Shown: positions 59,683 to 64,000 of the stretch, piece after piece | Position numbering within the stretch: the stretch's first letter is position 1 | Layout of the letters: each line of letters opens with the position of its first letter | Virus record (IMG/VR): IMGVR_UViG_3300025877_000002 | DNA: 64,000 nucleotides | Strand: one strand, 5' to 3' | Source of the DNA: an uncultured virus (IMG/VR IMGVR_UViG_3300025877_000002) | Taxonomy: Duplodnaviria > Heunggongvirae > Uroviricota > Caudoviricetes | Translations under genes and position numbers: made by a program | The notes under the pieces: model-generated | The model's database searches: none | Seen by the model: only the letters and a program-made list of their open reading frames with translations | Told to the model about the DNA's origin: nothing

Positions 59683-60153
59683 TCAACAGTCACTATTGCA
59701 TTCAATAATAAAATTAATCGCTTCTTTGAAAGTATAGTTTAAACTACTATTTTCAATAAAATTAAAAATATCATTATTAAATAAAATATTATCTTTTTCA
59801 GATAGCATTTTAAAGAAAGTAAGTAATTTTGTTTTTAGTTCATTACTATCTATTGAATAATAATAATAAATAAAATAGGTAGTAAAACTTTTTTTACTTT
59901 GCTTAATTACTTCAATAAATAAACTTTCTAATTCTTTACTCTCTATAATATCATCAAAGTAAGTAAAGAAACTATGCTGAATGTTTGTTTCTATTACTTC
60001 ATAACATTCATTTAATGTAGTACATTCTTTTAATTCATTAACAAAGTAATTACAAAAAGAAAAGTTTTTATTGTTGATTTTTTTCTGTTCTAAATAGTTA
60101 ATGATAAAAATAAATAATTCTTTTGTTGCTTGGGTTTTGTTTTCAGTTTGCAT
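59683..60153 (-). CDS. AT-rich island gene (no Gly, Pro, Trp or Arg)
   Basis: 156-aa ORF with the shared AATCTAAAA..AAAAAAA-ATGCAA leader and a downstream terminator. Confidence 0.7.
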   Translation of the reverse strand: MQTENKTQATKELFIFIINYLEQKKINNKNFSFCNYFVNELKECTTLNECYEVIETNIQHSFFTYFDDIIESKELESLFIEVIKQSKKSFTTYFIYYYYSIDSNELKTKLLTFFKMLSEKDNILFNNDIFNFIENSSLNYTFKEAINFIIECNSDC

Positions 60154-60192
60154 TTTTTTTATTTTAGATTGTAAGTAATAATAAGATAAAAG

Positions 60193-60224
60193 AAAAAAAG
60201 AGTAAGCTAATTAGCTTACTCTTT
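60193..60224 (-). terminator. Perfect palindrome / intrinsic terminator
   Basis: AAAGAGTAAGCTAATTAGCTTACTCTTT plus a T tract. Confidence 0.75.
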
Positions 60225-60234
60225 AAAAAGAAAA

Positions 60235-60762
60235 TTAAAGTTTATTTTCTTTTTTTGCTTGTTGTATCACTTCTAAGAAACTTTGAACTACAATATACAT
60301 TGTATTAGTTTCTTTACCTTCATAGAGTGAACGCACTGTGAAATCATTTACAGAATAAAATTCTTTATAGTGTGCAACAAAAATAGAAAATTCTTTTTTT
60401 GCTTCTATAAAGTGCAATTTACTTTGTGTAATTTCTTTTTTAAAAATACAATTTTCACCCGCTTTTAATTTTATTACTATATTGTTCATTAACTTGCGTA
60501 GTTCGTTTCTTTTGGTAGTACGATATTTTTTACCACCGTCAAAATCCTGTAAATATTTTTTATCTTTAAATAAACCATTTCTACCACTACCACTTTGAGT
60601 AGTATTATTAGAAGTACTAATTTTATCTAATAAATTTGAAAGATTCTTACTATCTTGTTTTTTCTCTTTAACTACTTTTTCTTTTTTTACTTTTGCAGTT
60701 TTTGCAGTTTCAACATTTGCAGTTGCAGTTGTTGTTGTTGGAGTTGTTTCTGAATTTTGCAT
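60235..60762 (-). CDS. AT-rich island gene, Lys/Thr-rich basic protein
   Basis: 175-aa ORF with the shared leader motif. Confidence 0.75.
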   Translation of the reverse strand: MQNSETTPTTTTATANVETAKTAKVKKEKVVKEKKQDSKNLSNLLDKISTSNNTTQSGSGRNGLFKDKKYLQDFDGGKKYRTTKRNELRKLMNNIVIKLKAGENCIFKKEITQSKLHFIEAKKEFSIFVAHYKEFYSVNDFTVRSLYEGKETNTMYIVVQSFLEVIQQAKKENKL

Positions 60763-60847
60763 TTTTTTTGTTTTTAGATTGTTTGAATTATTTGTTTTTA
60801 ATTATGAAGTAAAGATAATCTTTAAAGATGAAGATTAGATGAATTTT

Positions 60848-61057
60848 TTAATTCAGATATAATAAAGAATTATTTATTTCTTTTATTAATTTAATTCGCT
60901 GAATTTTTAACTTGCTTAAAAAATACATATTTTCAGCGAGTTGTTCACTATCTTTTACAGAATTTAAACTTTTATTTTCTGCGATAGTTTCGAGTCTTAA
61001 TCCTGCTAATTGAATAGTGGATTGAATAAATAAATTTAAGTTTTTAGATGTTTGCAT
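60848..61057 (-). CDS. AT-rich island small protein
   Basis: 69-aa ORF with the shared leader motif, downstream of a TACATTTG promoter. Confidence 0.65.
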   Translation of the reverse strand: MQTSKNLNLFIQSTIQLAGLRLETIAENKSLNSVKDSEQLAENMYFLSKLKIQRIKLIKEINNSLLYLN

Positions 61058-61092
61058 TTTTTTTTATGTTTTTAGATTTATTAATTTATACT

Positions 61093-61124
61093 CAAATGTA
61101 AAACATAAAGTTTCAAAAGTCAAA
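61093..61124 (-). promoter_or_regulatory. Bacteroidota-type promoter: TTTG (-33), 20-nt spacer, TACATTTG (-7)
   Basis: Both consensus elements present, upstream of ATG 61057. Confidence 0.75.
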
Positions 61125-61580
61125 TATTATTTTTAAAATTCATCTAATCTTCATAATTAAAAAAAGTAGTATTTTATTACAACTTTTATTCTTATATGCA
61201 AATTGGGTGGGTAGGTGGGTAATTTTGGGGAAGGCATGAAGGCATGGTTGTGGGGGCAAATTAGGAAAAAAGTTGGAGGGCCCCCGGGAAAGGGCCTTGC
61301 CCACCTGCATGGTTAGCTATTAGTATATAATGTCTAGCCAATATACATGTTAGAAGATATGAAGTAAGTGCTTTGGTATACTTGCATTTGACTAGAAGTA
61401 TGGAGAATAGAGCAGGAAAATGCAAGTAAACCTACTCTATTCTTTATTCCATACCCCCTGAACCTGATTTACTTAGATATCGCAGCGATCAGAGCAGTGA
61501 TCAGGATCAGGATGGCTATAGGGCTCATTGGGTCATAGTAACGTTTCCGTATCATAGTAAAGGATCTGATCAGTTTCGGA

Positions 61581-61955
61581 TTAGTATAGTTGGGTACTAT
61601 GCGAGAGTCCGCATCGTTGGCATTCAGCACCCATGGATCCTGATTCTGGTCCGCCTTCATCGGTGCATACCCAGTCATGTCCTTGGGTAGCACAGATAGC
61701 AATGGCTTCCTTGTGGTCCTCGTTATCCATAAGATCGTTGATAGCAATTTCGAATCGGTCGGGATCCAAGCGATGGAAGTAGGTATCCCGGACCCAATGA
61801 ATTAAGGTAGCCCAGGCATTTTCCCAGTTCTCTTGTATCTGTGTTTCTTCAGTTACCGGCAGGATCTTCCAGTGGGATCGGAATACGGGCATTAAGCCGA
61901 ATTGTTCGAAATTTGGTTCGATTATTTCTAGGTATTCTGTTTCTTGGTGCATCAT
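61581..61955 (-). CDS. Hypothetical protein with a C-terminal zinc-ribbon-like motif
   Basis: CATQGHDW...CQRCG. Confidence 0.65.
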   Translation of the reverse strand: MMHQETEYLEIIEPNFEQFGLMPVFRSHWKILPVTEETQIQENWENAWATLIHWVRDTYFHRLDPDRFEIAINDLMDNEDHKEAIAICATQGHDWVCTDEGGPESGSMGAECQRCGLSHSTQLY

Positions 61956-62260
61956 AGTGATTGGAGTTTTTGGATGAAGGCGGCATGGAATACTAGCATC
62001 GGGAGGGAAAATAAGGTAGCCATTAGTTCCGCATCGATGTACTGATCGTAAAGTTTGAGCATCCGTTCAGCTTGTCCTGTCGGCAATTTGAGGGTTTGAA
62101 TTAAATGGGTATGATAGGTTGCCCGGTGGATTTTTAATTGGTCCGACGGTTTACCTAGGTTAGTGGTTTGTTTCCTTGTCCGTTTGGCAACGGGGTGGGA
62201 AATTGCAGGTTGCATTTTTTTATTGTCTTGCATTTTTTTAGATATTAGTACTGTTTGCAT
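61952..62260 (-). CDS. Hypothetical early protein with three in-frame MQ starts
   Basis: MQTVLISKK-MQDNKK-MQPA; promoter immediately upstream. Confidence 0.65.
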   Translation of the reverse strand: MQTVLISKKMQDNKKMQPAISHPVAKRTRKQTTNLGKPSDQLKIHRATYHTHLIQTLKLPTGQAERMLKLYDQYIDAELMATLFSLPMLVFHAAFIQKLQSL

Positions 62261-62276
62261 TTTTTAAATTATAGTG

Positions 62277-62284
62277 CAAATATA
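62277..62284 (-). promoter_or_regulatory. Bacteroidota -7 promoter element (TATATTTG)
   Basis: TAnnTTTG 16 nt upstream of ATG 62260. Confidence 0.75.
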
Positions 62285-62346
62285 TATATATTATAATTAT
62301 CTTTTATATTAAATTTTTGCGGCCCTGAAAATAGGTAGGCCTAGTG

Positions 62347-62415
62347 CCGTAGGGCCTATCACCTAAAAAGAGGAAAGGGCCTATCCAGCATGGTACCCTA
62401 CCGTAGGGCCTATCA
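62347..62415. repeat. Intergenic direct repeats: AGGGCCTATC x3 (CCGTAGGGCCTATCA x2)
   Basis: Copies at 62351, 62376 and 62405. Confidence 0.85.
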
Positions 62416-62437
62416 AGTCCAGGAATCGGTACCACAC

Positions 62438-62465
62438 AAAAAAGCCCCAACCCGTCGGCTGAGGC
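62438..62465 (-). terminator. Intrinsic terminator after 62483..63295
   Basis: GCCTCAGCC-GACG-GGTTGGGGC-TTTTTT. Confidence 0.7.
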
Positions 62466-62482
62466 CCAAGCAACATAACTAA

Positions 62483-63295
62483 CTAAACTATCTCATCATC
62501 ATCTTCAAAATCCGATTCCCTCCGAACCTCATGTCTTACTTTACTACTTACTATAGTAGCAGCAGTATCGGTTGTAGGGATTAGGGATCCATCGGTATCA
62601 ACCCCTTGTTGGTAATTGGCTCTTACCTCAGGTAGGTCGTCTATATTATATTGTTCCTTTAATTGGTCCTTCAATTGAGGTTCGGTAAGGAGCCTCATTG
62701 GTTGTTCTGTATTCATTAGTTTAATCGCTTTCTCTGGGGTCAGGGCATCGGATTCGGATTGAGGATTAGAGCCTGGTACCAGATAGTGATTAGGGCTTGC
62801 TGCCCTGTGGGATTGGTCTAAAGTACGGTAGAGATCCAGGAGATTTTTGTCTGCCGCCAGTGCACCCGATATGGCTCGGTTTACCTCACCAGAGATGTAG
62901 GGCTTGTATTTTCCCCCCTGACTTTTGAGCATCGTACCGAGCTGTAAATCAGCAGTTTGGCTGTGATTTAGGGATTTTTTTATAGCCCAATTTTTGATGA
63001 CCCTAAGGGATTGGGCAGTGTCTTCTAGGTCTGAATCTGGTCCCATCCCTTGCATATAACCCATACGTTTGTATAGATACCTGATGATATACATAGTATC
63101 TAATTGTAAGTAAGTTGATACTTCGTCTATAGTAAGTGGTTTGTTGTTTACTGTTTGATTGTTTATGAAGTAAAGGTTTAGTATGTGATCTTTGATCTTC
63201 TTTAATTCTTCTTGTTTGTTGGCTGATGTGTTTAGTGATTGGGCTTGGAGAGTAACTCCTAGTGGTCTGGGTATCCTTTGAATCTTTGTTTTCAT
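62483..63295 (-). CDS. Hypothetical protein, possible HTH with an acidic tail
   Basis: LTIDEVSTYLQLDTMYIIRYL HTH-like segment. Confidence 0.65.
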   Translation of the reverse strand: MKTKIQRIPRPLGVTLQAQSLNTSANKQEELKKIKDHILNLYFINNQTVNNKPLTIDEVSTYLQLDTMYIIRYLYKRMGYMQGMGPDSDLEDTAQSLRVIKNWAIKKSLNHSQTADLQLGTMLKSQGGKYKPYISGEVNRAISGALAADKNLLDLYRTLDQSHRAASPNHYLVPGSNPQSESDALTPEKAIKLMNTEQPMRLLTEPQLKDQLKEQYNIDDLPEVRANYQQGVDTDGSLIPTTDTAATIVSSKVRHEVRRESDFEDDDEIV

Positions 63296-63459
63296 TTTAG
63301 TTTGTTTTGTAGCTGGGTGGGGGTTGATCCGTATCTAGCTCCGAATGTGGCCATCTTAGCCTGTTCTCTTTGGTGGTCTGTAACCATTGAATAAGGTACA
63401 TTGAACATCTTGGATGCGGCTAGTTTGTGTTGGTCCTTATATCTCCTGTTTGTTTTCAT
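63292..63459 (-). CDS. 55-aa mini-protein resembling the family A polymerase fingers (O-helix) subdomain
   Basis: Below the ORF-track cutoff; MKTNRRYKDQHKLAASKMFNVPYSMVTDHQREQAKMATFGARYGSTPTQLQNKLK; ATGA overlaps at both ends. Confidence 0.8.
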   Translation of the reverse strand: MKTNRRYKDQHKLAASKMFNVPYSMVTDHQREQAKMATFGARYGSTPTQLQNKLK

Positions 63460-63737
63460 TTATGTTTGTTTGGTAGCATGATATCTACTGATAGTAGTTT
63501 ACCGTCCTGATGTATGATAGCCGATGGTAGTTCGGCATTCTTTAATTGGATTGGGTAGTTAGTTGTTGGTGGCGGGGTTAATAGGGAAATTAGTTTAGAA
63601 CCGTCCTCTTGTTCTGGCATCCTGGCTTGGGATCGGATTAGGCAATGTCTGATGTTGTAGGCTTCCTCTTGGGATAGTTCTACTACTATAATTGGTTCTT
63701 TCCTTTTCTGGGTTACAGGTCTGATGTATGTTTTCAT
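63456..63737 (-). CDS. Hypothetical protein
   Basis: ATGA-coupled ORF. Confidence 0.6.
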   Translation of the reverse strand: MKTYIRPVTQKRKEPIIVVELSQEEAYNIRHCLIRSQARMPEQEDGSKLISLLTPPPTTNYPIQLKNAELPSAIIHQDGKLLSVDIMLPNKHK

Positions 63738-63997
63738 GATATCTGTATTACTTCTTGTTTGGTCGGTGACTGATGTTGTATCTGGTCCTCGTGATTCTTG
63801 ATGTATTCTCTTGCGGTTTCCTCTGTCTGAATGTAGTCTACTAAGTAGGTAAAGGATCCATCTCGGTAGGAAAGGGTTTCGTAGTAGGAATAGATCCTGA
63901 TCCCGAATAGTTTGATATGTACTTGTTTCTGGGGCCAGTATCGGATAGAGTTATTCTCCATGGTTACTTTCAGTATCCTGTATTTCCTTTGTTTCAT
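63734..63997 (-). CDS. Hypothetical protein
   Basis: ATGA-coupled ORF; KYRI...YWPQ pattern. Confidence 0.6.
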   Translation of the reverse strand: MKQRKYRILKVTMENNSIRYWPQKQVHIKLFGIRIYSYYETLSYRDGSFTYLVDYIQTEETAREYIKNHEDQIQHQSPTKQEVIQIS

Positions 63998-64000
63998 TTC

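Follow-up and report, generated by a model that had tools for sequence, protein, structure and literature searches.

The DNA considered here is a stretch of 64,000 nucleotides, referred to below as the window, from an uncultured virus of the Caudoviricetes (IMG/VR record IMGVR_UViG_3300025877_000002), a wastewater phage. Near one end is a very small gene on the minus strand, which encodes a stand-alone homologue of one part of the fingers of family A DNA polymerases (PolA), namely helices N and O and the start of helix O1. We refer to it as the mini-gene and to its 55-residue product, MKTNRRYKDQHKLAASKMFNVPYSMVTDHQREQAKMATFGARYGSTPTQLQNKLK, as the mini. An initial annotation, made from the letters alone, had proposed a 55-codon open reading frame (ORF) at this position, and the ORF is present in the ORF listing; the peptide quoted in that annotation corresponds to residues 9-44. 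We conclude that this is very probably an intact, optional accessory gene of a polymerase-fingertip family.

Small, translationally coupled genes form a unit here that closes with a terminator-like hairpin, and the mini-gene is the last but one of them (Table 1). The coupling had also been described in the initial annotation, as ATGA overlaps with both neighbours, and these can be read directly at 63459-63456 and 63295-63292.

Table 1. Positions of the mini-gene, its parts and neighbours, and of the resident polymerase gene, in the window
Feature	Position	Strand	Basis
55-codon mini-gene, stand-alone homologue of PolA fingers helices N, O and start of O1	63292..63459	-	ORF; PF00476; phrog_38792 (E 7.1e-8); AlphaFold2; Foldseek
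Helix N equivalent, residues 10-19; D9-x-H11 starts just ahead	63403..63432	-	DSSP on AlphaFold2 model; Klenow alignment
Motif B on helix O equivalent, R31-x3-K35-x3-F39-G40-x2-Y43-G44	63328..63369	-	Sequence; Klenow alignment; helix 28-43
Third short helix, residues 47-54, aligned to start of PolA helix O1	63298..63321	-	AlphaFold2 model; alignments
ATGA overlap, 93-amino acid (aa) ORF stop / mini-gene start	63456..63459	-	Read from sequence
ATGA overlap, mini-gene stop / 270-aa ORF start	63292..63295	-	Read from sequence
93-aa ORF upstream of the mini-gene, without family match	63456..63737	-	Pfam, PHROG, NCBIfam
270-aa ORF downstream of the mini-gene, without family match; final gene of the transcription unit	62483..63295	-	Pfam, PHROG, NCBIfam
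Intrinsic-terminator-like hairpin, 11 pairs, 6 of them G-C, with T run, 16 bases past the 270-aa ORF	62442..62467	-	
Complete family A DNA polymerase of the phage (exonuclease and polymerase), 715 aa	13590..15737	-	PF00476, E 1.5e-78 over 20-380 of 381

The mini had been taken for a protein consisting only of polymerase fingers, and profile searches bear this out. The Pfam family PF00476 (DNA_pol_A) matches residues 5-55 with 38.7 bits, above the gathering score of 34.3 (E 7.6e-10), and the match covers only positions 181-231 of the 381 in the profile. The NCBIfam model for DNA polymerase I, NF004397, matches at positions 690-739 of 889 (E 1.6e-8), the score of 33.6 bits being far below the cut-off of 720 that applies to a full-length equivalog. 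In the PDB, phmmer aligns residues 8-48 with 9qhs_A (E 1.9e-4) and residues 7-50 with residues 407-450 of a Klenow chain (E 1.8e-3), and in the latter alignment motif B of the mini pairs with Klenow RRSAKAINFGLIYG.

The AlphaFold2 model, built on an alignment of 22 rows, has a mean predicted local distance difference test score (pLDDT) of 77.5, with the block 11-30 at 93, and DSSP assigns helices to residues 10-19, 28-43 and 47-54. All 48 rows listed by Foldseek for this model are family A polymerases, the best superpositions having a root mean square deviation of 0.5-0.8 A over 30-36 columns; the E values all stay above 0.001, as the query is very short. The mini is thus modelled as a protein of about three helices: helix N, a loop, helix O with motif B, and the start of O1. 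A prediction for two copies as a homodimer scored 0.00 and gave no verdict. Motifs A and C of the palm, which carry the two catalytic aspartates, lie outside the matched segment, and the thumb and the exonuclease domain are also absent from the 55 residues. A protein without these parts is incapable of polymerisation, and the mini is non-catalytic and unable to copy DNA.

The phage has a complete PolA of its own, 48 kb from the mini-gene. Its motif B reads KKRAKTINFGILYE, and BLASTP of the mini against it detects nothing (best E 48). In contrast, segments of cellular-type Pol I are 41-45% identical to the mini over residues 1-54, 5-55 or 9-55, in agreement with the earlier statement that the mini is nearer to cellular Pol I than to the resident enzyme. 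Polymerases of SPO1-like Bacillus phages are 55-57% identical over residues 8-47.

The initial annotation had preferred a gene to debris of a decayed polA, and had noted that further decayed polA sequence in the flanking frames would point to a pseudogene. We looked for such sequence with a custom PolA hidden Markov model (HMM) of 609 positions, made from 18 full PolA genes and the resident one, run with all filters off on all stop-to-stop frames of the window and of L020, a locus that continues for 3.5 kb past the window end. It matches the resident PolA (E 2.7e-192) and the mini (E 4.5e-13, positions 407-457 of 609), and beyond these two the next match in the six frames of window and L020 has E 11. 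In the nearest virus record, with which the window has 69% of its sampled words in common, PF00476 likewise matched only a full PolA and the mini. In the family scans and with the custom HMM there is neither an endonuclease nor any further polA remnant near the window's mini-gene. The window, the flank past its end and the nearest virus record thus yielded no additional polA-like sequence in these searches, and the preference for a gene is supported.

The match at E 11 deserves a brief description. It is a 102-aa ORF of the next transcription unit, 61952..62260 on the minus strand, which scores 1.5 bits and has an exact IHRAT and then, 4 residues on, LIQTLKLPTGQAERMLKLY; these stretches are like the beginning of PolA helix N and like helices O1-O2, and the core of the mini, which would lie between them, is missing. 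We considered it as a second polA remnant and rejected it: BLASTP gives E 0.054 over 19 residues of one Pol I and nothing with the PolA of Goe3, there is no Pfam PolA match, and the protein atlas points to helix-turn-helix (HTH) families at 0.86, which is a lead only. The ORF probably encodes a small HTH protein with a chance likeness to PolA.

The completeness of the resident enzyme bears on one possible role for the mini, that of a piece of a split polymerase giving the fingers in trans. There are precedents in phages, in the T7-like split between exonuclease and polymerase (in the accessible text of PMC10201439), in gp06 of Ralstonia phage Bakoly and in Goe26. However, the resident PolA has its own motif B, no other polA pieces are present in the window or its flank, and the mini is absent from close variants of the phage described below. 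This explanation is already contradicted and can be treated as effectively excluded.

Stand-alone homologues in other phages, which the initial annotation had named as a check, occur in several unrelated lineages; we refer to the segment that they share with the mini as the module. Acinetobacter Friunavirus has a 59-aa module ORF, present in 33 records, in the early region upstream of primase/helicase. Pectobacterium phages PPWS2 and CX5 have 60-aa module ORFs away from the polymerase gene, and the Acinetobacter Saclayvirus vB_AbaM_P1 has one of 55 aa, with similar proteins of 55-69 aa in Liucustia and CP14. In the phiKMV-like phage phiNFS the module forms the N-terminus of gp13 (phrog_6982), a protein of 274 aa with a hydrophobic C-terminal end. 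The best PHROG match of the mini is phrog_38792, the family of the Friunavirus minis, with residues 3-45 on 7-49 of 62 (E as in Table 1), and BLASTP of the mini against five members from cultured phages and one from an IMG/VR contig gives E 3e-5 to 6e-11 in that small database. In PHROG phrog_38792 is labelled as of unknown function, and phrog_6982 and phrog_30466 as 'DNA polymerase'.

Broader searches add to this set. With phmmer against 1.84 billion representatives there are 20 non-self matches at E <= 1e-3, of which 16 are of 58-146 aa and 4 of 408-855 aa. We judged 12 of the 16 short matches to be whole small proteins; the other four (P0014, P0016, P0020 and P0022) look like products of adapters or frameshifts and were set aside. 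When nine short members were combined into a profile, the search with it returned 39 clusters of 55-113 aa, and as 21 of these are on contigs of 20 kb or more they are not truncations at contig ends. At the start of many of the longer members is a motif A-like segment, D/N-x4-E-x-[RK], which corresponds in the alignment to DYSQIELR of polymerases; the window's mini is a short form that lacks it. P0003 (98 aa) has two modules in tandem, for which AlphaFold2 gives a confident second module and no confident packing between the two (predicted template modelling score 0.42). P0004, with an N-terminus closest to that of the mini, has a C-terminal CxxC...CxxC extension; its likeness to the end of the 93-aa ORF (8 of 14 residues alike, pairwise E 0.002) is too short to use. 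On these comparisons we place the mini in a recurrent set of predicted phage mini-proteins, in which the module stands alone (55-70 aa), is extended by a motif A-like segment, is in tandem or is fused to other sequence.

Other searches returned mostly the phage itself or ordinary polymerases. A single-protein word-index search found only the mini itself, in 7 contigs of up to 82.8 kb; the contigs with its gene reach 81-83 kb. A search of the same index for longer proteins gave nothing, and blastn of 61000-64000 against a phage genome collection gave no match. A metagenome scan gave 80 loci, 79 of them full-length or contig-truncated PolA genes and the last L020, from the same phage, and so no new minis. 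Scans of IMG/VR (6 and 9 loci) gave the same phage, PPWS2, a Friunavirus-like contig, full UDG-fused PolAs and one new mini (L008).

Two sets of candidates were rejected. 'Gp13' of LUZ19 is not the counterpart of phiNFS gp13, being in the accessible part of its source a GNAT acetyltransferase and a different gene. The faecal scaffolds MT835753.1 and MT836467.1 ('Bacteriophage sp.'), which matched the mini, have ordinary Pol I genes of 903-906 aa instead; these have 5'-nuclease N-termini, are followed by an ORF of about 200-230 aa, and look bacterial and not viral.

We also made some observations on the surroundings of the relatives. The 274-aa phiKMV-like gp13 gene (L113:2573-3397) adjoins an annotated nickase recognition site. 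Directly downstream of the mini in both Friunavirus (L001:2936-3334) and Saclayvirus (L103:3927-4403) is a gene of unknown function, and the two genes (phrog_6769 in the Friunavirus podovirus and phrog_17487 in the Saclayvirus myovirus) have products 33% identical over 135 aa (E 1.6e-17). The mini and this gene may travel together among Acinetobacter phages.

With regard to individual residues, we scored conservation in 47 module sequences besides that of the window, which are not independent, as they include several close clusters of Friunavirus and Saclayvirus type. D9 and T27 are kept in all 47, A15, F19 and V26 in 46, Q30 in 45, Y43 in 44 and R31 in 41, while K35 is kept in 39 (with Arg in 6 more) and H11 in 33 (with Tyr in 13 more). 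The long-form members retain the D/N-x4-E of the motif A-like segment. The two glycines of motif B behave differently, G40 being present in 11 of the 47 and G44 in 22, against 17 and 16 respectively of 20 full polymerases taken as a convenience sample. Search bias does not explain this contrast, as the query itself has both glycines.

In the ternary complexes of Klenow, Taq and T7 polymerases the equivalents of H11, R31 and K35 touch the triphosphate of the incoming deoxynucleoside triphosphate (dNTP), while its sugar and the templating base are stacked upon by those of F39 and Y43. All five would therefore face the substrate and not the protein core. As such substrate-facing residues are kept while the context-dependent glycines are relaxed, we favour a binding role through the O-helix face, and the retained His/Arg/Lys/Tyr face fits a role in binding of nucleotides. 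That the function of the mini is to bind a nucleotide or another phosphate ligand is, on this comparative evidence, a possibility that we regard as doubtful.

The ligand could instead be nucleic acid, with the mini a small basic binder or regulator that reuses a helical hairpin derived from a polymerase. The mini has 11 Lys/Arg to 3 Asp/Glu, some homologues are labelled 'DNA-binding protein' in GenBank, and there are weak leads of HTH type for the neighbouring 270-aa and 102-aa ORFs. However, the charge is not conserved, the PPWS2 homologue being net acidic, and the GenBank labels are annotations only. In the Klenow and Taq ternary complexes, moreover, the hairpin meets the dNTP and the templating base and not duplex DNA. 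We consider a nucleic acid binder very improbable.

The ends of the mini-proteins can be compared with the points at which phage PolA genes break naturally. On the Pol I of L022 the N-terminal PHROG pieces phrog_9556 and phrog_12241 end at about 641-647, the C-terminal pieces start at about 650 (phrog_2573) and 724 (phrog_5995), and the module families lie between, phrog_38792 at 693-730 of L022 and phrog_30466 at 633-707 of L014. In the SPO1-like phage Goe26 PolA is in two ORFs with a 179-aa ORF between, the second starting 65 residues before the module. Bakoly gp06 (271 aa; L101:2905-3720) starts 32 residues before the module, and P0009, a metagenomic C-terminal polymerase piece of 619 aa, starts at the module, just before helix N. 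The mini-proteins thus have their ends where phage PolA genes break naturally, which fits capture of a 'middle piece'. We note that in P0009 the TIQG...TAADI motif is split by an insert of about 310 residues that begins with Cys and in our view resembles an intein.

The explanation that we put forward overall, tentatively and with somewhat less than even confidence, is that of an optional fingertip gene from a captured stretch of PolA that binds through the N/O face. The stretch from motif A to motif B would have been captured from a foreign PolA gene, between two points where such genes often split. The mini would then bind its ligand with that face of helices N and O (H11, R31, K35, F39 and Y43) which meets the incoming dNTP in the enzyme, and this ligand would most likely be a nucleotide or other phosphate-rich molecule. 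Taken separately, the proposition that the mini is kept for some function seems to us rather probable.

The chief rival, and a serious one, is that the mini is a neutral leftover: a piece of foreign polA lying between the insertion points of splits or mobile elements, recombined into the locus in frame and coupled to its neighbours, and inert. The other readings, of a nucleic acid binder or of a decoy, are less likely. The break points just described flank the module and count for the neutral explanation also, as do the split genes of Goe26 and Bakoly, and there is an HNH endonuclease 0.9 kb from the PPWS2 mini. Nor are fragment ORFs peculiar to the fingertip, as small PHROG families exist for other PolA regions also (phrog_12116, 81 positions, before motif A; phrog_24147, 93 positions, at the C-terminus).

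This last point counts against the explanation that we favour, and there are several others to set beside it. Haplotypes were obtained by aligning contigs from public runs to 62400-64000, and the locus proves to be a hot spot with at least three of them. In one close variant 382 other bases replace 63298-63462, which is exactly the mini, with the neighbours unchanged, and in another 121 bases replace 63308-63733, removing most of the mini together with the 93-aa ORF. The mini is cleanly swapped for other cassettes in close relatives, and is therefore an optional cassette in a variable locus. Two contigs from RNA libraries (X9 and X20) cover the neighbours, but they represent variants with other cassettes and so are uninformative on transcription of the mini. 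All copies of the mini-gene that were found are identical: three loci are 99.9% identical over 4.6 kb with identical minis, and a wastewater contig has 6 differences in 1.26 kb, none listed within the mini. With all copies identical there is no ratio of non-synonymous to synonymous rates (dN/dS) for the window's own lineage.

For Friunavirus, a different lineage, such ratios could be calculated, as the initial annotation had suggested for homologues. Among six alleles, by the Nei-Gojobori method, dN/dS is 0.18-0.51 in 14 of the 15 pairs, a result below 1 that rests on small counts (1-9.5 synonymous and 4-9.5 non-synonymous differences per pair), and in the remaining pair, with only 5 differing sites, it is 1.19. 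The ORF frame is broken in both Friunavirus genomes that were read among the five with partial matches; these decayed copies, in APK116 (L109) and ABW132 (L110), have stops in frame, and the sequence runs into a tandem-repeat IYIYIY stretch. The Friunavirus copies also have Gln, Arg and Tyr at the positions of R31, K35 and H11, which weakens a strict reading of triphosphate binding, and a helical hairpin of 55 residues, outside the fingers subdomain, may be unable to form a binding site alone.

Against a neutral leftover we would set the occurrence of the same core, with similar ends, intact in at least five unrelated phage groups and far from the polymerase genes, and the further forms of the module, duplicated in tandem in one protein and included in another, conserved one of 274 aa. 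The low Friunavirus ratios point the same way, as does the patterned conservation, in which ligand-facing residues are retained and glycines lost, and the window's copy has near it no endonuclease or other remnant of polA. On balance we think that a neutral leftover is unlikely, while giving it more weight than any other alternative.

It had also been suggested in the initial annotation that the mini may be a decoy for defence systems that sense polymerases, a sponge that binds nucleotides or signals, or an inhibitor of a host Pol I interaction. As a decoy it would expose the fingertip to some host factor, one that senses or attacks family A polymerases, and so divert or block it. To our knowledge no defence system reads the O-helix, which counts against a decoy. 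The optional, cassette-like nature of the gene, among small genes of unknown function, is what one might expect of a decoy, as is the early-region position in T7-like phages, shared with many counter-defence genes, and the residues retained are surface residues of the active-site face of the polymerase. Phage PolA has also been documented as a trigger or site of escape for the systems Borvo and AbiQ, both of which are escaped through polymerase mutations (in the accessible portions of PMC11348598 and bioRxiv 10.1101/2022.08.27.505566). However, the Borvo escape mutations, as given in the accessible portion of bioRxiv 10.1101/2022.08.27.505566, sit in the proofreading cleft and not in the fingers. 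In addition the mini, being closer to cellular-type Pol I than to the resident PolA, would be a poor stand-in for the resident enzyme. A decoy is in our judgement distinctly improbable.

A further extension of the binding explanation, in which the fingertip minis would be a widespread class of phage proteins that capture nucleotides with the dNTP-gripping face, alone or as oligomers, and so constitute a new kind of sponge or sensor, seems improbable at present. Candidates for capture would be substrate dNTPs, chain-terminating analogues or the nucleotides of immune signalling, and the long forms, with the Asp and Glu of motif A, would be a fuller version.

The mini family is recurrent and, as far as our literature search reached, without a described function. 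The full-text search gave no account of such mini-proteins, which is weak evidence of absence given its thin coverage of subscription journals. The broad reclassification of family A polymerases dropped sequences below 350 aa before clustering, as stated in the accessible text of PMC10201439, and mini-proteins were thereby invisible to it. If the mini is functional, a fragment of about 40 residues from the active site of a replicative polymerase has been excised and reused many times as an independent phage protein, in a class now obscured by the labels 'DNA polymerase', 'DNA-binding protein' and 'hypothetical'. Should it prove to be a leftover, its family would still show where phage polymerase genes naturally break and would caution against annotating such ORFs as polymerases. 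Members are present in cultured phages of Acinetobacter, Pectobacterium and Pseudomonas, which makes the function open to direct test.

The rest of the window can be dealt with briefly. Nearly all genes are on the minus strand, and they include genes for a terminase, a capsid protein, a baseplate J protein, a tape-measure-like protein, DnaB-like and UvsW-like helicases, RecA, an SbcCD-like pair and a C-5 methylase. Scans with Pfam, PHROG and NCBIfam gave no family match for the neighbouring ORFs of 93, 87, 270 and 124 aa, and for the 270-aa ORF the HTH or sigma-like leads are weak, all protein atlas scores being below 0.9. The segment 59683-61057 is AT-rich (GC is 0.31 in 60001-62000 and about 0.40 elsewhere) and its three ORFs, all on the minus strand, are of 156, 175 and 69 aa and encode products of low complexity that are rich in Asn, Lys and Ile. 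This block may be a foreign insert.

With regard to known systems, the mini is best compared with the fingers of bacterial-type DNA polymerase I (Klenow residues about 730-773, Taq and Bst). It shares their signature and their helix-loop-helix geometry and has the His, Arg, Lys, Phe and Tyr of the dNTP-contacting face, but it corresponds to no more than about 50 residues of a polymerase core of some 600, and across its family the glycines of the F-G and Y-G pairs are relaxed in comparison with full polymerases.

The closest parallels are Friunavirus WEM05723.1, PPWS2 ORF5 (BBD74637.1) and vBAbaPP1_162 of the Saclayvirus, all of which are stand-alone proteins of 55-60 aa like the mini. They are 42-56% identical to it over 36-45 residues and share the core D-x-[HY]...F-x-[VI]-P...V-T-x2-Q-[RQ]-x2-A-[KR]...Y, and their genes are among small early genes distant from the polymerase gene, in other phage groups and hosts. 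In GenBank the Friunavirus ORFs are 'DNA-binding protein' or 'hypothetical protein' and PPWS2 ORF5 is 'DNA polymerase', functions that are by annotation only. The Friunavirus copies differ from the mini at R31, K35 and H11, as described above, and the PPWS2-type ORF in having the motif A-like N-terminus. The same module is recognised in phrog_6982 (274 aa) and phrog_30466 (122 positions), at Pfam positions 184-220 of 381 (E 6.3e-5), but in phrog_6982 it is the N-terminal 45 residues of a larger protein and does not stand alone as it does in the mini.

The split family A polymerases, those of T7-like phages with separate exonuclease and polymerase (accessible text of PMC10201439), Bakoly gp06 and Goe26 polA_1, resemble the mini in being polA-derived ORFs shorter than the enzyme, with break points near the ends of the module. 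However, the pieces of a split polymerase adjoin and sum to a whole enzyme, whereas the whole enzyme of this phage is elsewhere and the mini adds nothing that it lacks. The mini is thus a whole small ORF in a phage that has its complete polymerase at another locus, and it belongs with the stand-alone family.

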